Virus record (IMG/VR): IMGVR_UViG_3300032261_000043
Coordinates: 1 to 34,293 of that record
Length of the DNA: 34,293 nt
Source of the DNA: a virus
Taxonomy: Duplodnaviria > Caudoviricetes
Reading direction: 5' to 3' (one strand)
The first letter of the stretch is position 1. Each line of letters opens with the position of its first letter. Position numbers and translations under genes: made by a program. Shown piece by piece: positions 2-24,183 of the stretch. The notes beneath the pieces are model-generated. The model was not told where the DNA came from, did not search any database, and was given only the letters and a program-made list of their open reading frames with translations.

Positions 2-463
2 CAAGCCATCGTCGTTATCGAGTGGCTTGTCGTCCTTATCGAGCTCACGCATCACCATGTAATAGGTGAACATCCATGGATCACGCATGCGGCCTGACTG
101 CTCGTCCAAAATCCATTCGGACGTGTCGGCCTCCGCTTCCGTGTCGCCGGGCTTGTAGCCGCATCCCAGCGTGTCGCGCTTCGGAGTAACGAAGCCCTCC
201 ACGATCAGACCCATGAGCTGCTCGACGGGTTTGTTGTTTTCCCATTTGATCCAACCCTTGAGCAGCTGATCCGTGTTGACGATGAAGCGCGTGCCCATCG
301 GCAGCTCGACGTTATCCTGTCCCGCCGCGAACGTGCCAAACTTCGTGAACTTGAGAAGCTGGCCAACGATGTTGCGTTGCGGAGCTCGGCGGCCTTCCTC
401 CTCGAACGGATTGGGATGCTGAGCAGCAGGCAGTTTCTGTGACGTTGATTGCATTTCACTCAT
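2..463 (-). CDS. Phage protein, possibly ssDNA-binding/recombination; runs off the left edge
   Basis: Not in the ORF track. Hand translation from ATG 463 (ATGA overlap with the nuclease stop) gives MSEMQSTSQKLPAAQHPNPFEEEG...LLKFTKFG...GWIKWENNKPVEQLMG...DPWMFTYY, open to the window edge. Function inferred from position after the exonuclease. Confidence 0.7.
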   Translation of the reverse strand, partial: MSEMQSTSQKLPAAQHPNPFEEEGRRAPQRNIVGQLLKFTKFGTFAAGQDNVELPMGTRFIVNTDQLLKGWIKWENNKPVEQLMGLIVEGFVTPKRDTLGCGYKPGDTEAEADTSEWILDEQSGRMRDPWMFTYYMVMRELDKDDKPLDNDDGL

Positions 464-1668
464 GATCGTTTTCCTTTTCGCTTCGCAGTTTTCGCTCTCT
501 TTGTCACGGCAGGCTTCCTGCCGTGGATTTTCGCTTTGGTCTTTACCGTCTTTGCTTTCTGCTTCTTTCTCCTCTTCTTGTTGCCGGGCTCCATCAACGC
601 CGGTTTGTACGCCTCCGCGGGCAATGTGGCCGTGATCACCAAGCGGTCGCTGTCTTTGCTGATATGTTCAAACTGCTCGATGTCGATGCCCAGTGCCGTT
701 AGCTGCTCCTTCATCGGTCCGATTGCGTAATACGGCCGTCCGGAAACCCTGTACCAGTTCACCACGCCTTCAATTCTGCGCACGCCCTTGTCCTTGAGCC
801 GCTCCTTGATGACGTTTTGGCGATCATTGAATTGCGCTTCCAGCCGTTCAATCTGCACGCTGATTGCGTTGGCCTCGCGAGCATAGTCCGTTATCTCGGC
901 GATGAATTGCGGTGTGGCTCTGACATTGTTAGGCGGCACCGCCATTCGCTCGACGCCACAGGCGCCGACGAATGGACAGAACGAACATTCCTTGCCACCG
1001 GCGATCCAGCCTTCCGGCCGCAGCTCATTGCCATTCTTGGCGTGGATGATGATTGCCGCGCGTCGCTTGGCTTCATCATACAGCTTTTGATCGAACGGAA
1101 TGGCAAACTCGGTTATCTCGCTCCAGAACGATGCATCCGTGTACGTGAGCAGATCATAATTTGGCTTGTACTCCGTACACTCGCGAACCAAGCCCATTTG
1201 TGCGACGGTTTGCATGTAGTTTTCGATCTTGGCTTCGCTGATGTTCGTTCGTGGATCGATGGTCTTGCCTTCTGCGAGCAAAACGCCCTGCTCGCCTATG
1301 TTGTCGATGCCGAGATATTTCAACACGTCCGGCTTTTGCTTGATGATCAACGCATCGGGCGTCGCCGATAGATAGCCGCTGAACAGGGTTTTCTGCGCAT
1401 GTCCGGAAAACAGGATGTTGTCGCCGAACCGCAGTTGCATTGCCGGAGCCCAGAAGTGCCGTTCCATCAGCGTGCCACGAATGCGGGCTCCCCAATTTTC
1501 TTCATGATCCGCATCGCGTTCAACGCCACGCTCGGTGCCTTCATTCTTTAGCCAGAACGTCTTGCGAGCGCACTGGCCTATTTCCGAAGCGCCGACGGTT
1601 TGCGTCCGGTCATAGTCCCATTCAACTTCCAGCGTCTTGGCGTACTCTGCGAAAATCTCTTTTAGCAT
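460..1668 (-). CDS. Cas4-like PD-(D/E)xK exonuclease with a 4-Cys Fe-S cluster and a Lys-rich C-terminal tail
   Basis: N-terminal GASEIGQCARK, RGTLMERH, catalytic TPD...EGK, C-terminal CSFCPFVGAC (1+3 Cys arrangement). Confidence 0.8.
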   Translation of the reverse strand: MLKEIFAEYAKTLEVEWDYDRTQTVGASEIGQCARKTFWLKNEGTERGVERDADHEENWGARIRGTLMERHFWAPAMQLRFGDNILFSGHAQKTLFSGYLSATPDALIIKQKPDVLKYLGIDNIGEQGVLLAEGKTIDPRTNISEAKIENYMQTVAQMGLVRECTEYKPNYDLLTYTDASFWSEITEFAIPFDQKLYDEAKRRAAIIIHAKNGNELRPEGWIAGGKECSFCPFVGACGVERMAVPPNNVRATPQFIAEITDYAREANAISVQIERLEAQFNDRQNVIKERLKDKGVRRIEGVVNWYRVSGRPYYAIGPMKEQLTALGIDIEQFEHISKDSDRLVITATLPAEAYKPALMEPGNKKRRKKQKAKTVKTKAKIHGRKPAVTKRAKTAKRKGKRS

Positions 1669-5334: not shown

Positions 5335-5883
5335 ATGCAAAAGTTTTACAATGACCGCTTGGACGACATCTTTCCGGATGCACGTCCTGCCTGCGAAGAA
5401 ACGAGCAACGACAAATTTCAACGTGCGAAGCTGGCGGCTGACAAGTCGCTGGCTTTCATCATGGCTGGCAATTCGACGGTGACGTTTCAATCAATCAAGA
5501 CCGGTGTCCGGTTCACGTTCCGAATTCAGGCACCGCACAAGGAAGGTAACGAAGGCACCAACGCAGCACGCGACGTGAATAGCCAGATGCGCTTCGTGCA
5601 GGTATTGACCGGTCAAGACAACGAAAATTCTTATCGTTATCTCGGCTACATCAAGCGCGGCGTCTACTTTCATGGTGGAGCGAAAGCCAAGATCGGCGAA
5701 GACGCACCATCAGCCAAGGCGTTCGCTTGGGCTTTCAAACGTCTGTCGCAGGGCGGTGACATGTCGGCTATGGAAATCTGGCATGAGGGTCGTTGCGGAC
5801 GATGTGCCCACAAGTTGACTGTCCCTGAGAGCGTGGCCTCTGGCTACGGTCCGGAGTGCATTGGAAAGGTAGGCTTACTGTGA
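5335..5883 (+). CDS. DUF6011-like Zn-ribbon protein
   Basis: C-terminal WHEGRCGRCAHKLTVPESVASGYGPEC. Confidence 0.75.
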   Translation: MQKFYNDRLDDIFPDARPACEETSNDKFQRAKLAADKSLAFIMAGNSTVTFQSIKTGVRFTFRIQAPHKEGNEGTNAARDVNSQMRFVQVLTGQDNENSYRYLGYIKRGVYFHGGAKAKIGEDAPSAKAFAWAFKRLSQGGDMSAMEIWHEGRCGRCAHKLTVPESVASGYGPECIGKVGLL

Positions 5884-6089
5884 AACGTCTTGCACTGCTC
5901 GCCCTTGTGTTGTTCATCTTCGCCGGTGCATCAACCAAGGGCGTCCACAAACCGGAAACCCATTACGAACCCGAGCAGGAATGGGTTTGCTACCATCACA
6001 ACAAGGAAATCAAACGCTTCAATCTCGATACAGACGACTATTACACCAAGCAATTGATCGCCTTGGGTTGCGTACCACAAGCGAGGTAA
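5880..6089 (+). CDS. Small membrane/secreted protein
   Basis: GTGA coupling; MKRLALLALVLFIFAGA is signal-like. Confidence 0.6.
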   Translation: MKRLALLALVLFIFAGASTKGVHKPETHYEPEQEWVCYHHNKEIKRFNLDTDDYYTKQLIALGCVPQAR

Positions 6090-14783: not shown

Positions 14784-15089
14784 ATGAATGGGAAGAAATC
14801 AATTGGAGAGAATGATAGCCGCCTGATCTTTCAACCATTCGAGGAAGCCGTCGTACCTCCTCCCGGCCTTATCGAGCATATCAAGGATAGATGGTGGGTG
14901 GTTCATCCGCAGCGGGGCTTAGTTTGGTTTTGCTTCCATAAAATAGGCCGACATAATCCATTGGAGCTAGCCTCGCCACAGTGCAACACAAATGAGGCAA
15001 TCGTCAGATACCGCCTAGCCCGCTATCATTGGGCGGAAGTCAAGTTTATGCCATCCGTGTTCCGAAGGATTAATCCACATGACTACTAA
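14784..15089 (+). CDS. Hypothetical phage protein
   Basis: AAGGA RBS. Confidence 0.7.
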   Translation: MNGKKSIGENDSRLIFQPFEEAVVPPPGLIEHIKDRWWVVHPQRGLVWFCFHKIGRHNPLELASPQCNTNEAIVRYRLARYHWAEVKFMPSVFRRINPHDY

Positions 15090-15129
15090 AACAAACAACC
15101 ACCACTCAACGATGAAAGGAAGCCAGCAA

Positions 15130-15957
15130 ATGACCAATGAAAATGGCATGAGTATTCGAACCGTCGTAATTCTTTCCGGAGGGCAGGACAGTACGACATG
15201 CCTTTATTGGGCGATCCAGCAATTCCACGGCGCCAAACATGTCGCCGCAGTGACGTTCGATTATCAGCAGCTGCATCGTCGCGAAATCGAAGCAGCTACA
15301 ATCATAGCGAAAATGGCAGCAATAGCCTCGCACGAAGTAATTCCGCTGGGACCGGTATTGCATGGAACATCTCCGCTCGTCACCAACGATCTTGACAGTC
15401 TCGAAACGTACAAAGACTATAACGAAATGAACGAAGTCATCGGCAGCCGGATCGAAAGGACATTCGTGCCGATGCGCAACGCCCTGTTCATCACCATCGC
15501 AGCCAATCGCGCCATCGCTCTCGGAGCGCAGTCGCTCGTCACCGGAGTTTGCGAAATGGATAACGCCAACTATCCGGACTGCCGGGACGATTTCATCTAT
15601 TCACAGGTGAAATCGATCAACCTCGCGCTTGGCAACGAAACCAATTCATTCCAGATTTATGCGCCGCTGATGTTCATGTCGAAAGCCGAAACGATTGGGC
15701 TGGCGACACGTCTTCCCGGCTGTATGGAGGCGCTGGCCTATTCGCATACGGCCTACGATGGCGGCTATCCGCCGACATCGAAAGACCATGCGAGCACGCT
15801 CCGGGCTCAAGGGTTTTTGGAGGCGATGGTTCCTGACCCTCTAGTCGTGCGGGCATGGCGAGAGGGTCTAATGCCCCTCCCCGGATCGCCCAACTATGAC
15901 CGGTTGAGGGAGGGCGCTGGGCAACCTCCTAATGACCGGGAAACACCGGTTCCCTGA
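15130..15957 (+). CDS. queC: 7-cyano-7-deazaguanine (preQ0) synthase
   Basis: VVILSGGQDSTTC PP-loop, FDYQQLHRRE, TFVPMRNALF, NYPDCR, APLMFMSKAE; in-frame upstream ATGs from 15079. Confidence 0.93.
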   Translation: MTNENGMSIRTVVILSGGQDSTTCLYWAIQQFHGAKHVAAVTFDYQQLHRREIEAATIIAKMAAIASHEVIPLGPVLHGTSPLVTNDLDSLETYKDYNEMNEVIGSRIERTFVPMRNALFITIAANRAIALGAQSLVTGVCEMDNANYPDCRDDFIYSQVKSINLALGNETNSFQIYAPLMFMSKAETIGLATRLPGCMEALAYSHTAYDGGYPPTSKDHASTLRAQGFLEAMVPDPLVVRAWREGLMPLPGSPNYDRLREGAGQPPNDRETPVP

Positions 15958-16065
15958 CCCTTTTAGGAGGGTCTAGGATAGGGTTTGCCGGGGCAGGGTC
16001 AGGAATACCCGGGCTCCCGGTTCCCCATACTGTACGGTCAAGCCAAGGGCGGCAAAGGAGGGTTC

Positions 16066-16566
16066 ATGTACGTCAGCACAAAGACCTACGGGCACGCAGT
16101 CGGGTTCTCCGCCTGCTTCCGACAACACCGGGCGCAATCGCACTGCAAATACCTGCACGGTTACTCGCTCGCGGTCCGGCTTGAATTCGAGGCCGACGCC
16201 TTGGACGAGCTGAATTGGGTTGTCGATTTCGGCAGCTTGAAGGATGTCAAGATTGCGCTTGAGCAGATGTTTGATCACACCATGCTTGTTGCGCAGGACG
16301 ATCCGGAGCTGGATTTTTTCATGGAGCTCAACCGGCGAGGGCTTGCTCGTATCCGTGTTGTCGCAGCAACAGGTTGCGAGGCATTCGCCAAACAAGTCTA
16401 CATCATGGCACATGGTTGGCTTGTCATCAACAAATACGTTCCGCGCGTCAGACTGCGGAGCGTCGAAGTCGCCGAGCACGGAGCCAATTCAGCCATCTAC
16501 ACGGGAGGCGCTGATGCCACTAATGAAACGAGCGTACCTAGCGGGAGCAATATTCCGCGAGATTGA
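16066..16566 (+). CDS. queD: 6-carboxy-5,6,7,8-tetrahydropterin synthase
   Basis: AAGGAGG RBS; HCKYLHGY, LDELNWVVDFGSLK, FDHTML, TGCEAFA, VEVAEHGANSA. Confidence 0.92.
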   Translation: MYVSTKTYGHAVGFSACFRQHRAQSHCKYLHGYSLAVRLEFEADALDELNWVVDFGSLKDVKIALEQMFDHTMLVAQDDPELDFFMELNRRGLARIRVVAATGCEAFAKQVYIMAHGWLVINKYVPRVRLRSVEVAEHGANSAIYTGGADATNETSVPSGSNIPRD

Positions 16567-16915
16567 TCCTATGTCGTGGCGCCGGCGCGCGGCGAAATTG
16601 ATGCCGGAAGGCTGGGAAGCCGTCAATCCGCTTGATATGCAGAAGGCATGGGAATTGACGCCGGACGAATTGGTGAAGCGGGATTACATGCTGATACAGG
16701 AAAGCCAAGCCATCGTTGCGTATGTCAATAAGCCGTCTTGGGGAACGGCGATGGAGCTGGCTTATGCAAAGCGAATAAATATCCCGGTGATTGGCTGGAC
16801 ACCGCGACCATTGATCCGTCGGCTGCTCAATCCGTGGCTGGTGGCTCACTGCCACAAGATTTGCGGATCACTCAGCGAAGCGTGCTTGGAGCTGCGCAAT
16901 GTCAACGACTACTGA
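16514..16915 (+). CDS. Nucleoside 2-deoxyribosyltransferase / nucleotide N-glycosidase family protein
   Basis: AYLAGAI, VNP, KRD, SWGTAMELAYA, IPVI; GGAGG RBS. Confidence 0.85.
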   Translation: MPLMKRAYLAGAIFREIDPMSWRRRAAKLMPEGWEAVNPLDMQKAWELTPDELVKRDYMLIQESQAIVAYVNKPSWGTAMELAYAKRINIPVIGWTPRPLIRRLLNPWLVAHCHKICGSLSEACLELRNVNDY

Positions 16916-17480
16916 AAACCACAAGATCATCATTGCATCGTTGATCAAGATCATGGGCGACGATCCTAACCGGGAGGGCCTGAAGGAAACGCCGCGACGC
17001 TTCCTGATGTCCTGCCGGGAATGGTTCGCCGGCTATGACATGGACCCTGCCGAGATACTGACAACCGTTGATCAAGCAAATGGCTTCGATGAAATGGTGA
17101 TTGAGCACAACATCCCTTTCAACAGTTTCTGCGAGCATCATCTGGCTCCGGTCCGCGGCATCGCTCATGTCGGATATATTCCAAAGGAGCGAATATGCGG
17201 CATCTCAAAGCTGGCTCGCTTGGTCGAATGCTTCGGCCGCCGTCTCCAATTGCAGGAGCGATGTACCGTGCAGATTGCCGATGCGCTGGTTGAGCACCTT
17301 CAACCGATTGGCGTCGGCGTCCTGATCAGGGCGACGCACGCTTGTATGGAAACACGCGGTGTCAAAATGCACGGTACTCTGACGACAACCAGCGCAATGC
17401 GAGGAGCACTATTGACCGGGCACGGTCAAGCGCGAATGGAATTCCTTCAATCATGTGCCATGGCGGAGAAAGATCGATGA
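16899..17480 (+). CDS. folE: GTP cyclohydrolase I
   Basis: GDDPNREGLKETPRR, SFCEHHLAP, GISKLARLV, RRLQLQER, HACMETRG. Confidence 0.96.
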   Translation: MSTTTENHKIIIASLIKIMGDDPNREGLKETPRRFLMSCREWFAGYDMDPAEILTTVDQANGFDEMVIEHNIPFNSFCEHHLAPVRGIAHVGYIPKERICGISKLARLVECFGRRLQLQERCTVQIADALVEHLQPIGVGVLIRATHACMETRGVKMHGTLTTTSAMRGALLTGHGQARMEFLQSCAMAEKDR

Positions 17481-17764: not shown

Positions 17765-17961
17765 GAGCAACTTGTCCATACGCCAAATCACCGTTCACGC
17801 CTTGCGTGCGTCGTGATGGTCCCGTTTGTTTCGCCATGAATAGCGACGATCAACCGATTTGCGTTGGTTGCGAGCGAAGTCCGAAGACCTTGGGAGTTGA
17901 GCCCCCGAAGAATTGGGACCGTATCGTTGCTGACTATAAAGCAAAAAGCCGGAGGCGTTGA
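17761..17961 (+). CDS. Small Cys-rich protein
   Basis: ATGA coupling; five Cys including CVGC. Confidence 0.6.
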   Translation: MRATCPYAKSPFTPCVRRDGPVCFAMNSDDQPICVGCERSPKTLGVEPPKNWDRIVADYKAKSRRR

Positions 17962-18956
17962 TGCGTGTCTATATGGCTTCATTCTATCAAACCATCCGCG
18001 CCCAAACCATGTCGGCTTCGACAATCCAGCGCATCACCTATCGCAACTTCGTCTATCCGTGGATGCTGGAAAGCTTTCACTATATGGACAAGATCATGGC
18101 GCGCGACATCCGCGAACACAATCGCAACGTGTTTCTCGATAGTGGCGCGTTCTCCGCCTTCACCGTAAATGCGAAGATCGATCTTGACGACTATGCGCAC
18201 TTCCTACGGGACTGCGGCGACCTATACCACGTTGCATCAAATGTTGACGTGATCGGCACCGATTGCGAGGAGAAGACATATGCCAATCAAAAATATCTAG
18301 AAAGTAAAATTGGCACTGGCATTGTCTGTCCTGTTCATCATGTACGTGATCATGATGATTGGCTTAAACGCTACATGGATGAAGGATACGAATATTTATT
18401 TCTCGGCGGTATGGTGCCGGAAACGACGCCAGTACTTCGTCAATGGCTGGATCATGTATGGATGAAATATCTGACCAATCCGGACGGCACGCCAAAGCTC
18501 AAAGTGCACGGCTTTGGCTTGACGACGGAAGAGCTGATGTATCGCTATCCGTGGTTCTCCGTTGACAGTACGTCATGGCTGATCGCTGCAGGCTTTGGTT
18601 TCGTGTTCATGGACTTTCCGCAGGAAAAAGGCGAGCCACGGCATTTCAAAGTCAACTTCTCGGAACATTCATCGTCGCGCTATGATCTGAGTGGCTGGCA
18701 CTTCACAACGTTGAAAGCCGACGAGCAGGAGATGGTCCGCGCGAGGTTGGAGCAGTTGGAAATTGAACGACGATGGGTCGCCGATCCCGGCTTGCGTCGG
18801 GACTTCAAGGATGAACATGGCACCGAGCTCCGTTATACACCGGAGGCCATCGGCAAATCCCTTGGCCTTCGCCGCGTGATGAACATGGACTATTTCATTC
18901 GCATGGCAGAGCAGCGAACCAACAGATTTGCGAGAGTACAAGAGACTTTATTCTAA
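17961..18956 (+). CDS. dpdA: DpdA-like 7-deazaguanine DNA transglycosylase (TGT fold)
   Basis: VFLDSGAFSA, NVDVIG, PVHH, LGGMV, KVHGFG, YPWFSVDSTSW; sits within the que cluster. Confidence 0.8.
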   Translation: MRVYMASFYQTIRAQTMSASTIQRITYRNFVYPWMLESFHYMDKIMARDIREHNRNVFLDSGAFSAFTVNAKIDLDDYAHFLRDCGDLYHVASNVDVIGTDCEEKTYANQKYLESKIGTGIVCPVHHVRDHDDWLKRYMDEGYEYLFLGGMVPETTPVLRQWLDHVWMKYLTNPDGTPKLKVHGFGLTTEELMYRYPWFSVDSTSWLIAAGFGFVFMDFPQEKGEPRHFKVNFSEHSSSRYDLSGWHFTTLKADEQEMVRARLEQLEIERRWVADPGLRRDFKDEHGTELRYTPEAIGKSLGLRRVMNMDYFIRMAEQRTNRFARVQETLF

Positions 18957-18974
18957 TCGACAACAGGAGCGCAA

Positions 18975-19193
18975 ATGATGCTAGACGACAAGACCGAGCT
19001 TTATCTAAAGATCGGCTCAACCAAACTTGATCCAGCCGAGCCTACGCTTGAATGCGTGCTCGCACGCGGCTTTGCAGCGATGGGCTGGCTGCAACCACAA
19101 TCAGCCGCCTATGATATGGTCGTCGCTGCGGCCAATCGCGTCAACGCCGTGATTGAAGCCAAGAAAACAATAAATTGGGAAACACGCAAATGA
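18975..19193 (+). CDS. Hypothetical protein
   Basis: AGGAG RBS. Confidence 0.65.
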   Translation: MMLDDKTELYLKIGSTKLDPAEPTLECVLARGFAAMGWLQPQSAAYDMVVAAANRVNAVIEAKKTINWETRK

Positions 19194-20155
19194 AAGATGC
19201 ATTGAAATGGATCAAAGGCGCCATTTCAGCGCGTTCGCTGGTCGAAGACAAGACCTTTTACAAGATGGACAACAGCGAAATCAAAGCAACAAATGGCCGG
19301 CTAACTGCCGGCCATCCGTGCGAGACAGGTTGCGACTTTCTTGTACCGGGCGAGGAATTCGAAAAGGTGCTGGAACGGTTGCCGGGCGATATCACGATCA
19401 AGCCAATGGACAAGGCGGTGCAGTTACGTAGCGGCAGGTTCAATGGGACGATCAACACTCTGCCGCTTGATCGTTGGTCATATCCCGATGCGAGCGAAGC
19501 TGTTTGGCAACCCATCCCGGCAGATTTAATAAACCTGCTGGATCAGCTTCGCCCGTTCGTATCGGACAACGCCACGCAGGGATGGGCGACGTGTGTTGCT
19601 CTTGAAAAGGGTTGGGCGTATGCGACCAACAACATTGCACTCGCCGGAGGAGCGTGCAAGGGTTTGGACTTGATGGCCCTGCTGCCGGTGTGGGCCGTTG
19701 ACTTCGTACTGGCCAGAAAGGAGGGACTTCGAAACTGGGCTTGGTCGGAAAACTATGTGGCCTTCCAATGGGACAATGAAGCATGGATGCGAAGCGTGCT
19801 CGTGATCGGACAATTCCCCGAGAAAGCCGCGGCGATGATCCGTGAGGTTGCCGGCACGAAGACGACAACGAAGATCACGCCGGAGTTTCGTCAGGCGTTC
19901 GTTGATGTGGCCGGGCTGGCGGAAGATACGATCTTGATCTATGGCGACAAGATCGTTTCCCGGTTCAAGCAAGCAGAGATTGTCGCCGATATAGTGTGCC
20001 GCGTTCCGGATGGTGTAGAGTGTTCGATTTGGGGCGCCGAATATTTGGTGCCGGCAATAAAGGCGGCTGACAGTTGGTCGCCTGATGTCTGGCCAAAGCC
20101 GGCGCCTTGGAAAGGAAAATCAATCTGCGGTCTAGTAGTGGGGAGAAAGGCTTAG
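19190..20155 (+). CDS. DNA polymerase III beta-like sliding clamp
   Basis: About 320 aa with repeated ATNG/ATNN strands; ALKW.KGAIS...IKATNG...FLVPG..F.K.L..LP...L.SGRF...L....YP follows the DnaN N-terminal pattern. Confidence 0.7.
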   Translation: MKDALKWIKGAISARSLVEDKTFYKMDNSEIKATNGRLTAGHPCETGCDFLVPGEEFEKVLERLPGDITIKPMDKAVQLRSGRFNGTINTLPLDRWSYPDASEAVWQPIPADLINLLDQLRPFVSDNATQGWATCVALEKGWAYATNNIALAGGACKGLDLMALLPVWAVDFVLARKEGLRNWAWSENYVAFQWDNEAWMRSVLVIGQFPEKAAAMIREVAGTKTTTKITPEFRQAFVDVAGLAEDTILIYGDKIVSRFKQAEIVADIVCRVPDGVECSIWGAEYLVPAIKAADSWSPDVWPKPAPWKGKSICGLVVGRKA

Positions 20156-20851
20156 ATGTTTGGCAAAAACAGTGTGCAATCGAAAATGAGAAGTGACGGC
20201 CAGATTTTGCGCATCGTCAAGGGCAGTCCCTTTCTGACGATACAGGGCGAGGGACCGCACACCGGAAAAGCCGCCGTGTTTCTCCGGCTGCACGGATGTA
20301 ACCTGCGCTGTTGGTTCTGCGATACTGAATTCGAGAACCATGACGATCCGGATGTCAGCGTTGTTGACATAGCGCAGATGATCATGGATGTGCGAGGAGC
20401 AGCGCGACTTGTCGTCATCACCGGAGGCGAACCGATGCGGCAGAACATTCTGCCGCTGTGTCAGATGTTGCGACAAATGCGGATGCTGATCCAGATCGAA
20501 ACCGCGGGCACGCTTTGGATCAAAGGCATTGAGCGTGTCGCGGAAATTGTCTGTTCTCCGAAGACGCCGGCGATCAACTCCTTTGTGTATGATCACGCTT
20601 GCGCCTTCAAATACGTCATCAGCCAATCAGGCGTAACACCGGGCTCGTACCTGCCGACGATTTCGAGCCAGCCCGATACGAAGCCGCGGCAAGTCGCCCC
20701 GCCTCGCAAGGGAGCTCCGGTCTATCTCTCGCCGATGGATGAATACGATCCGGACAAGAATGCCGAAAATCACCGAGCCGTCGCCGCGCTGGCAATCAAG
20801 TACAACGTCATTGCCGGCGTACAACTTCACAAGATCATGGAGCTTGATTGA
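20156..20851 (+). CDS. queE: 7-carboxy-7-deazaguanine synthase (radical SAM)
   Basis: FLTIQGEG, VFLRLHGCNLRCWFCDT, VVITGGEP, IETAG, CSPK, QLHK. Confidence 0.95.
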   Translation: MFGKNSVQSKMRSDGQILRIVKGSPFLTIQGEGPHTGKAAVFLRLHGCNLRCWFCDTEFENHDDPDVSVVDIAQMIMDVRGAARLVVITGGEPMRQNILPLCQMLRQMRMLIQIETAGTLWIKGIERVAEIVCSPKTPAINSFVYDHACAFKYVISQSGVTPGSYLPTISSQPDTKPRQVAPPRKGAPVYLSPMDEYDPDKNAENHRAVAALAIKYNVIAGVQLHKIMELD

Positions 20852-22242: not shown

Positions 22243-24183
22243 ATGCGTGGCGACGCTATAGGGATGTTTTGGGAAGACACGTCTGAATATCTTGGACGCA
22301 ACTATAGCGGCCCACGCCCTTTGCCACCAATCCCCGATACCGGTTGGACGCTTCCAACGGATTACCCTTCGCTGGAAGGCCAAGGCATGATCAGCATCGA
22401 CGTTGAAACCAAAGACGTTGAGCTGCGAACAAGAGGCTGCGGCGCCAATCGCCCTGACTGTTATATCTGCGGCGTTGGCGTCGGCACCGAAGCAGGTTTT
22501 CGCCGCTATTATCCGGTGCGTCACGAAATGGGGGAAAACCTGCCAATCGATAGGGTCTTTGGCTGGCTCAAGCGAGAGCTCAAACGTCCGGTGCCGAAGG
22601 TCGGTGCAAACATCTTCTATGATCTGGCCTACTTCGATGCGGAGGGAATTGAAGTCACCGGTCCTTACTATGACGTGCAAGTGGCCGAGCCGTTGCTAGA
22701 TGAAACCAAGCTGACGTATTCGCTGGAAAGCATCTCGCAGGATCATCTCGGCGAGGGCAAGCGCGAAAACGAAATGTTGTCTTGGATGATCCGGGCTTTC
22801 GGCAATCAATCGAACATGAAAGGAAACATCTATCGCGCTCCGCCTGTCGTTGTCGGACCGTATGCTGAAAGCGACATTGATCTGCCGCTGCGCGTATTCG
22901 AATTGCAGAAGGCCGAATTGGAGAAGCAAAATCTTTGGTCCGTCTTCATGCTTGAGACGCGGCTGTTCCCGTTGTTGCTGGCGATGTGGAAGCGTGGTGT
23001 CCCGGTTGATCTGGACAAGGCCGAGCAGAGCTATGCCAAATTGGCAGAGCGACAAGTCGCTGTGCTCGCCGAGCTCAAACGATTGACCGGACACGACGCG
23101 GACATATGGGCCGCGGAAAGTCTTGCCAAGATATTCGATGCGATGAATGTCGATTACCCGATGACGGATAAGACCAACAAGCCATCATTTCGCAAGGATT
23201 GGCTCGCAGCGTGCAACCATCCGGCCGGGCAGTTGATCGTTGAAGCTCGCAAGCTCGACAAATTCAAGGGTACATTTATCAAGGGATACATTCTTGAAGG
23301 CAACATCAATGGTCGCATACATACGACATTCCATCCACTGCGATCCGATGAAGGCGGCACCGTGTCGGGTCGCTTCTCTAGTTCAAATCCCAATCTGCAG
23401 AACATCCCGATACGCGACAAGGAGCTGGGGCCGCTGATCCGCTCCATCTTCCTTGCCGAGCTTGGGCAACGATGGTGGAAATTCGATTGGTCGCAAATCG
23501 AATTCCGGCTGGCGATCCATCATGCGGCAAGGCTCAAGCTATATGGAGCTCAGGCAGTCATTGATCAATATCAGAATGACCCGACAACGGACTATCACGC
23601 CGTTGTCGCGGCGATCACCGGGTTGCCGCGATCGTCGGCTAAGAACATCAATTTCGGCATCATCTATGGGCTTGGCATTCCGGCTCTCGCCATCTCGCTT
23701 GGCGTAACCAACGAAGTTGCGGCGAAGATGTATCGCGAATATCTGCGGCGCGTTCCGTTCACGAGCAGGCTTCGCGATGCTGCGATGCAAGCCGCGATGC
23801 AGCATGGCGAAATCGTCACGTTGTCAGGACGCCGGCGGCGGTTCAACATGTGGGAAAGAAACGGAGTATACTTCCCCCATCGTGTCCCCGGTGCGCAACG
23901 CGCATTCACTCACAAGGCGCTGAATTCCCGGCTGCAGGGCGACGCAGCCGACATCATGAAAACCGCCATGGTCGATGCTTGGGAAGCCGGCATCTTCGAT
24001 GACGGCATTCTGGGAGCTCCGCATCTGACGGTTCATGACGAGCTGGACGGAAGCGATCCCGTAACACCAACCACGCAGGAGGCGTTGAATGAGCTAAAGC
24101 ATATCATGGAAACTTGTGTTCAACTGCTGGTGCCGCTGAAAGCCGATGGCGGGACCGGTATCAATTGGGGAGCCATCCAATGA
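22243..24183 (+). CDS. polA: Family A DNA polymerase with 3'-5' exonuclease
   Basis: ExoI IDVET, ExoII GANIFYD, ExoIII YAESD; SGRFSSSNPNLQNIP; motif A DWSQIEFR, motif B RSSAKNINFGIIYG, motif C VHDE. Confidence 0.96.
   Translation: MRGDAIGMFWEDTSEYLGRNYSGPRPLPPIPDTGWTLPTDYPSLEGQGMISIDVETKDVELRTRGCGANRPDCYICGVGVGTEAGFRRYYPVRHEMGENLPIDRVFGWLKRELKRPVPKVGANIFYDLAYFDAEGIEVTGPYYDVQVAEPLLDETKLTYSLESISQDHLGEGKRENEMLSWMIRAFGNQSNMKGNIYRAPPVVVGPYAESDIDLPLRVFELQKAELEKQNLWSVFMLETRLFPLLLAMWKRGVPVDLDKAEQSYAKLAERQVAVLAELKRLTGHDADIWAAESLAKIFDAMNVDYPMTDKTNKPSFRKDWLAACNHPAGQLIVEARKLDKFKGTFIKGYILEGNINGRIHTTFHPLRSDEGGTVSGRFSSSNPNLQNIPIRDKELGPLIRSIFLAELGQRWWKFDWSQIEFRLAIHHAARLKLYGAQAVIDQYQNDPTTDYHAVVAAITGLPRSSAKNINFGIIYGLGIPALAISLGVTNEVAAKMYREYLRRVPFTSRLRDAAMQAAMQHGEIVTLSGRRRRFNMWERNGVYFPHRVPGAQRAFTHKALNSRLQGDAADIMKTAMVDAWEAGIFDDGILGAPHLTVHDELDGSDPVTPTTQEALNELKHIMETCVQLLVPLKADGGTGINWGAIQ

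Follow-up and report, generated by a model that had tools for sequence, protein, structure and literature searches.

A conserved C-terminal tail on a phage DNA guanine transglycosylase as a candidate contact with a sliding clamp

The DpdA proteins of phages are described as acting after replication, and the locus discussed here raises the question of whether one of them might reach newly made DNA by holding on to a sliding clamp. In a 34-kb phage record that is 58% complete (the window, meaning the whole 34,293-nucleotide stretch of DNA analysed), the predicted DpdA ends in the residues Q-E-T-L-F and a gene for a DnaN-like protein lies two genes downstream. The original prediction was of a DpdA that rides the clamp and modifies nascent DNA just behind the fork. 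If true, a clamp tether would offer DpdA both a means of modifying the majority of its targets in a quickly replicating genome and a way to tell phage from host DNA, and would tie protective DNA modification to the replication machinery. A widespread phage clamp, annotated but in the literature searched not linked to DpdA, would also gain a role and two candidate ligands.

The dpdA locus and the DpdA tail

The genes concerned lie on the plus strand in the order queC, queD, a deoxyribosyltransferase-like ORF, folE, a 94 amino acid ORF, dpdA, a 72 amino acid ORF, a 321 amino acid ORF and queE, with polA further on:

15079..15957, plus strand: queC (PF06508, E 1e-46; start codon uncertain)
15985..16566, plus strand: queD (PF01242, E 4e-16; start codon uncertain)
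16244-16915, plus strand: nucleoside 2-deoxyribosyltransferase-like gene, between queD and folE (PF05014, E 3e-8)
16899..17480, plus strand: folE, GTP cyclohydrolase I (PF01227, E 2e-61)
17961..18956, plus strand: dpdA, phage DNA guanine transglycosylase of the CAjan/9g (DpdA1-like) group, 331 amino acids (phrog_887, E 4e-51)
18927..18956, plus strand: DpdA C-terminal tail, F-x3-Q-E-T-L-F-stop, a candidate clamp-binding motif (QETLF codons 18939-18953)
18975..19193, plus strand: ORF of 72 amino acids, its stop overlapping the clamp start codon
19190..20155, plus strand: divergent phage beta-type sliding clamp, 321 amino acids, pI 5.5 (phrog_947, predicted structure, profile matches)
20156..20851, plus strand: queE, radical SAM (phrog_2076, E 3e-41)
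22243..24183, plus strand: family A DNA polymerase with a 3'-5' exonuclease domain (PF00476, E 8e-60; GGAG before ATG 22243)
22243..22278, plus strand: polymerase N-terminal peptide MRGDAIGMFWED, a candidate second clamp-binding peptide, common to the PolB-type polymerases of related phages

As in phage DpdA1 systems, folE, queD, queE and queC are all linked to dpdA (Pfam and PHROG matches). FolE, QueD, QueE and QueC would make preQ0, and DpdA is the predicted G-to-preQ0 exchange enzyme. The same four genes, together with a dpdA next to clamp and polymerase genes, are found in the Queuovirinae CAjan, 9g, PaMx25 and iggy (PMC6884629, PMC7544227, PMC10484667, bioRxiv 2023.04.13.536721), although the polymerase is PolA here and PolB in the CAjan/9g-type phages. 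Insertion of 7-deazaguanine into DNA has been reported for CAjan and 9g (PMC6884629), and we infer that the predicted enzyme described here does the same. The deoxyribosyltransferase-like gene could act on released guanine or on 7-deazaguanine nucleosides. The 72 amino acid ORF has no Pfam or PHROG match and was not found in any of five related contigs searched; scans for promoters and terminators gave matches at chance level only and tetranucleotide bias gave no clear target motif.

The dpdA ORF begins at ATG 17961 with a GGAGG ribosome site and encodes a protein 35-37% identical to the DpdA proteins of CAjan and PaMx25. It carries the conserved DSG, LD, HGFG and DST motifs of the TGT-like barrel, and its structural model is a TGT-type barrel that matches TGTs and the bacterial DpdA 7ui4 (Foldseek, E about 1e-5); a search by sequence found no solved structure of any phage DpdA. 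Translation of bases 18939-18956 confirms that the 331 amino acid ORF ends Q-E-T-L-F-stop, as had been claimed. In the model, the last helix spans residues 301-316 and the chain beyond residue 316 is coil, with no helix or strand. The pLDDT is 82 across the tail block (residues 321-330) and 63 at residue 331, against mostly 90-98 in the body of the protein; taken with the conservation of F323, this leaves room for the tail to pack on DpdA itself.

The reported beta-clamp consensus is QL[SD]LF (PMC12867686). Judged by its sequence, the DpdA tail resembles the clients that carry this motif without being a strict member of the family: Q1, the L-F at positions 4-5 and the location at the protein terminus are shared, whereas L2 and S/D3 are replaced by E and T and there is an extra conserved phenylalanine four residues upstream. 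A non-leucine second position is evidently tolerated, because the functional QHDLF and QPDLF motifs of the phage Mu protein MuC bind a beta clamp (PMC12867686). DpdA is the only ORF in the window to end in Q-x-x-[LFMI]-[FW]. An internal QKTLF in a RecE-like exonuclease (460-1668, minus strand) was also considered and rejected as a chance occurrence, having no homologue in the fetched loci and lying just before the nuclease core motif.

Conservation of the motif among DpdA homologues was tested directly, and the comparison of sequences indicates that the tail is a real and conserved feature. Q-x-x-[LFMI]-[FW] lies within three residues of the end in 84 of 119 close homologues, compared with 9 of 3656 other ORF ends in the fetched loci (stop-to-stop ORFs of at least 150 amino acids, non-coding frames included). 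In the A1 alignment, Q is present in 89, L in 87, F or W in 88 and the upstream F323 in 88 of 91 rows, figures that are inflated because the 91 were chosen from 120 hits by leaving out mostly tail-less or truncated ones. Positions 2-3 are mostly E/P/D and T/G in the close homologues; Q, L and F are fixed, with free variation in the residues from helix 301-316 to the motif. More distant clamp-linked DpdA proteins end in QIGLF, QMGLF, QISLF, QPELF or [IV]QELF, with QLGLF also seen, and a further group ends in G-F-x-L. Amongst named phages, the DpdA ends are VMELF in CAjan, IQELF in PaMx25, RLQDLFDE in 9g and QRRLF in Dp-1, where dpdA is near dnaN.

The phage clamp and the polymerase peptide

The 321 amino acid protein matches no Pfam family at E 0.1; it matches phrog_947 (E 3e-27) and, by profile, 4trt (E 1e-5), and 168 phage records contain a relative, often annotated as a replicative clamp. 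Its model (pLDDT 91.5) resembles bacterial beta clamps along its whole length (Foldseek E 1e-19, TM 0.78), and the VIA comparison of model residues 1-321 gives Z 26.9, an rmsd of 2.9 Å, 310 aligned residues and about 15% identity. The identification of 19190-20155 as a DnaN-like clamp gene between dpdA and queE is thus upheld by a predicted beta-clamp fold over the full length of the protein.

A profile alignment to four DnaN proteins (probability 86%, E 5e-6) places ATNNIAL on ATDGHRL and GQFP on GTFP. With pocket residue roles taken over from E. coli beta, which we assume to apply to the phage clamp, and with the C-terminal register set by eye, the L-F subsite of the window clamp (T146, L151, P210, V317) looks retained, and the His and Pro positions of the other subsite are occupied by I149 and G318. 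Of 178 clamps, 161 have T146, 169 have Leu/Ile/Val at position 151 and 165 have P210; Val or Ile takes the place of His in 152, and Gly that of the terminal Pro in 161. An apparently retained L-F subsite combined with a changed second-residue subsite fits a motif with a fixed L-F and a free second position, the fit being one of alignment rather than docking. Prediction of a complex between the clamp (A2) and DpdA residues 300-331 (A1) gave ipSAE values of 0.43, 0.06 and 0.19, with a median below the 0.32 mark, a result that weighs on neither side.

The clamp was modelled as a monomer. Its pI of 5.5 is close to the median of 5.6 in 112 relatives, and low pI is reported to go with ring clamps (PMC3201878). 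No clamp loader (PF13177) was detected in the window, which is 58% complete, or in any of four complete relatives with this type of clamp (CAjan, PaMx25, BUCT626 and G056); Dp-1 has one. Phage beta clamps that lack loaders have been noted previously (PMC3201878, PMC4889955), and the host loader could conceivably load the clamp described here.

PolA starts at ATG 22243 with the peptide listed above. The pattern D-x-x-G-[LFMIVW]-[FW]-[FW] is found within the first 130 open-frame residues of 52 of 57 close PolA and 36 of 38 PolB proteins, and elsewhere in only 10 of 27,401 other ORFs. Two positions outside the pattern definition are also conserved, with Arg two residues before it in 91 of 92 and Asp/Glu two residues after it in 90 of 92, so that the peptide can be summarised as RxDxxG[LFM]FW; the polymerases of CAjan, PaMx25 and 9g start with the same peptide. 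Among distant PolAs, those of the G-F-x-L group and of Dp-1 lack it. The suggestion that the PolA N-terminus might be a second, degenerate clamp peptide therefore holds as regards a peptide, which is conserved, but not as regards its degeneracy. The G-L-F at its core can be aligned with that of DpdA tails such as DQIGLF, and we regard the peptide as a candidate ligand that may bind the clamp.

The PolA of the window and the PolB of CAjan are alike only in their first 58 aligned residues (33%, E 1e-4; window 22243-22420, CAjan L003:11101-11270), which points to a swap of polymerase family behind a retained N-terminal module; the shared peptide would then be a clear example of a docking module that persists after the enzyme attached to it has been replaced. 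The best NCBIfam match of PolA is to the DpoZ model (313 bits, under its cut-off of 500), placing it within a wider group that includes polymerases of modified-base phages. The penultimate residues of the DpdA tail and the polymerase peptide seem to covary, F accompanying F in 11 of 15 cases versus 18 of 74 (p 0.0005), but this was set aside because all 11 come from one clade. Stenotrophomonas phage BUCT626 has a clamp and PolB and no dpdA in 18.8 kb (L088:9001-12240), and its polymerase starts with only a worn form of the peptide (GLFFE).

Distribution of tail and clamp

Scans of viral, metagenome and genome sequences, with the best 80 matches taken where there were more, yielded 262 distinct DpdA proteins whose C-terminus is closed. 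Of these, 180 have a clamp, 37 have none within at least 5 kb of downstream sequence, and 45 are undecidable. Among the matches listed, 165 of the 180 versus 5 of the 37 end in a hydrophobic tail of the strict or the broad kind, and 74 of the 180 versus 1 of the 37 in the strict motif; the patterns were defined after the tails had been seen, and a tail of either kind is found in about 14% of 4971 background ORFs. In 171 of 179 clamp-bearing loci, again among the matches listed, the start of the clamp gene is no more than 1.5 kb downstream of dpdA, and in none does the gene lie upstream. When 50 of the 54 loci without a nearby clamp were searched over the whole contig, one was found only in L072, whose DpdA ends in QPELFA, and in the remaining eight of nine near-complete contigs without a nearby clamp DpdA is tail-less. 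A tail with no clamp match is seen in L057, L066, L138 and L142, which are fragments or end close behind dpdA.

The co-occurrence of tail and neighbouring clamp that had been put forward as a check is thus apparent in the raw counts and in the adjacency of the two genes, but it is not significant in phylogenetically independent contrasts. Clamp presence changes just five times on a DpdA tree of 217 rows that was built without the tail, and the contrasts comprise four pairs only (sign test p 1, not significant), so the large counts mostly reflect shared ancestry. Tandem pairs of dpdA-like genes are found in L093, L094, L107, L125, L126 and L166; both copies have hydrophobic tails in L166, which bears a clamp, and neither copy does in the clamp-less tandem loci.

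A tree of 140 close relatives, with the tail state read by eye, shows loss of the tail in no fewer than four subclades, of which the first has 13 rows and the second 4, the others being the P0048/L203 group and P0017/P0026. The DSG, LD, HGF and DST motifs persist in most of the close homologues without a tail. The gene context was usable in three of the subclades. A tail-less dpdA is followed by a RepB primase gene in L205 (82-2754) and by an AAA-helicase gene in L209 (1299-4664), and lies beside a tyrosine integrase and a resolvase in L203 (533-5270). These three contigs (2.8-7.2 kb) contain neither a clamp nor a remnant of the motif in another frame, and their DpdA proteins may be decaying. 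Loss of the tail where there is no clamp is as expected of a tail that works with the phage clamp, not with the host clamp or in the fold of DpdA. A search for further context for tail-less copies gave none in viral contigs and only two known genomes among 401. QETLFT is kept in L284 (7876-14845), an integrated element of a bacterial chromosome contig whose genome has a single clamp match, the host dnaN. In L284, L203, L209 and L205, close relatives of the dpdA described here are found in integrative elements that resemble satellites, with genes for a tyrosine integrase, a primase-helicase and a serine resolvase among them and no clamp gene seen. Capture of dpdA may give satellites a means of modifying DNA of their own.

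Cellulophaga phage phi47:1 has a dnaN gene and a tail-less DpdA. Two of its que-cluster neighbours (L086:4233-4886 and 5606-6070) end in QVNLF and SVNLF, and a partner protein may have taken over the tether. L243 was rejected as a second clamp-bearing, tail-less exception, as QDTLFE is found in frame behind one stop; the in-frame stop (L243:1733-1766) could be a sequencing error, a nonsense change or a read-through site. The tail is absent from mycobacteriophage DpdA proteins without a clamp, and Arbiter, a species-mate of Rosebush compared in its place, has neither clamp nor tail.

What the tail might bind

We consider it fairly probable that DpdA is a client of the phage's own clamp, with the QETLF tail as the candidate contact, and is recruited in this way to new phage DNA; that it also acts processively, coupled to the fork, we infer. 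The polymerase would hold the phage clamp by its N-terminal peptide and the terminal L-F of DpdA would enter the same kind of pocket, either that of the second protomer or that of clamps which the fork has left behind, the likely benefit being faster and more phage-selective modification ahead of restriction enzymes. The receptor would be unlike host clamps, with about 15% identity and an altered second pocket. Such a tether is probably an enhancer and not a requirement for catalysis. dPreQ0 reportedly accounts for about 32% of G in CAjan and about 28% in Rosebush, and expression of 9g DpdA together with Gat-QueC in E. coli, where there is no phage clamp, leads to modification of 9-18% of plasmid G (PMC6884629). 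The Rosebush-type and 9g plasmid results imply that the phage clamp is not required for activity, and such high modification, apparently without one, makes the tether at most an enhancer or targeting device. Also counting against the client reading are the tail-less DpdA of phi47:1 alongside its dnaN, the tail of L284 in a genome with the host dnaN only, the small number of independent contrasts, the room for the tail to pack on DpdA and the failure to find a loader in any of the four relatives.

The closest precedent is the alpha-glucosyltransferase of phage T4, also a post-replicative, anti-restriction DNA-modifying enzyme on its own phage's clamp, for which Sommer 2004 is said to be the source. 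It co-purifies with gp45, and the strength of its expression, not clamp binding, is reported mostly to set the share of DNA modified (PMC13216743). DpdA differs in carrying out base exchange, in its TGT fold, in having a beta-type clamp in place of gp45 and in its defined C-terminal QxxLF; in addition, no loader was found in the DpdA-phage relatives checked and clamp binding by DpdA is presumed. The literature search, which covered few subscription papers and no supplements, found no paper proposing a DpdA-clamp link: the word 'clamp' is absent from the main texts of PMC6884629, PMC7544227, PMC10484667 and bioRxiv 2023.04.13.536721, and the available parts of PMC7544198, PMC8265664 and PMC8306585 contain nothing on it. 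For CAjan and 9g, dpdA deletion mutants and LC-MS assays exist (PMC6884629, PMC7544227).

Binding of the tail to the host beta clamp, alone or in addition, with the phage clamp serving mainly the phage polymerase, is an unlikely explanation though one to be taken seriously. Integrated elements have the host clamp too, yet three satellite-associated clades have lost the tail; nor do the clamp-less mycobacteriophage DpdA proteins have one, and dpdA and the clamp gene are neighbours in 171 of the 179 loci listed. In favour of the host clamp, similar QxxLF motifs in MuC bind that of E. coli (PMC12867686), many tails are near the host consensus (QLGLF, QISLF) and 9g DpdA, with its RLQDLFDE end, is active in uninfected E. 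coli (PMC6884629); the L284 tail and the lack of phage loaders in the relatives checked point the same way.

We doubt strongly that the tail is structural or intended for another partner, with F323, L330 and F331 packing on DpdA, a second DpdA or a Que enzyme, in which case its resemblance to clamp motifs would be incidental. The pLDDT of the tail block, an F323 that the canonical motif leaves unexplained and the largely joint inheritance of tail and clamp would all suit such a role, but the residues leading up to the fixed Q, L and F vary freely, most tail-less close homologues keep the barrel motifs and the polymerase has a matching G-L-F core. Very improbable, in our estimation, is a tail that binds the clamp without processive action at the fork, the clamp only marking replicated phage DNA or the contact barely affecting the level of modification. 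The motif is kept across very divergent phages, implying a selected benefit, even if the T4 enzyme provides a parallel in that its expression mostly sets its share (PMC13216743) and Dp-1, with tail, clamp and loader, has only about 1.7% of its G modified, as dPreQ1 (PMC6884629).

Returning to DpdA as a client of the phage clamp, the observations on tail, polymerase and satellites can be joined in a broader reading that we offer tentatively and with some doubt. In these mid-sized phages a private, loader-less beta clamp would be the hub that couples replication to 7-deazaguanine exchange, with polymerase and DpdA both docked on it, modification confined to nascent phage DNA and satellites shedding the tail. 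The portable N-terminal RxDxxGLFW module would have survived the exchange between PolA and PolB, and satellite-like elements would capture dpdA and lose its tail once away from the clamp.
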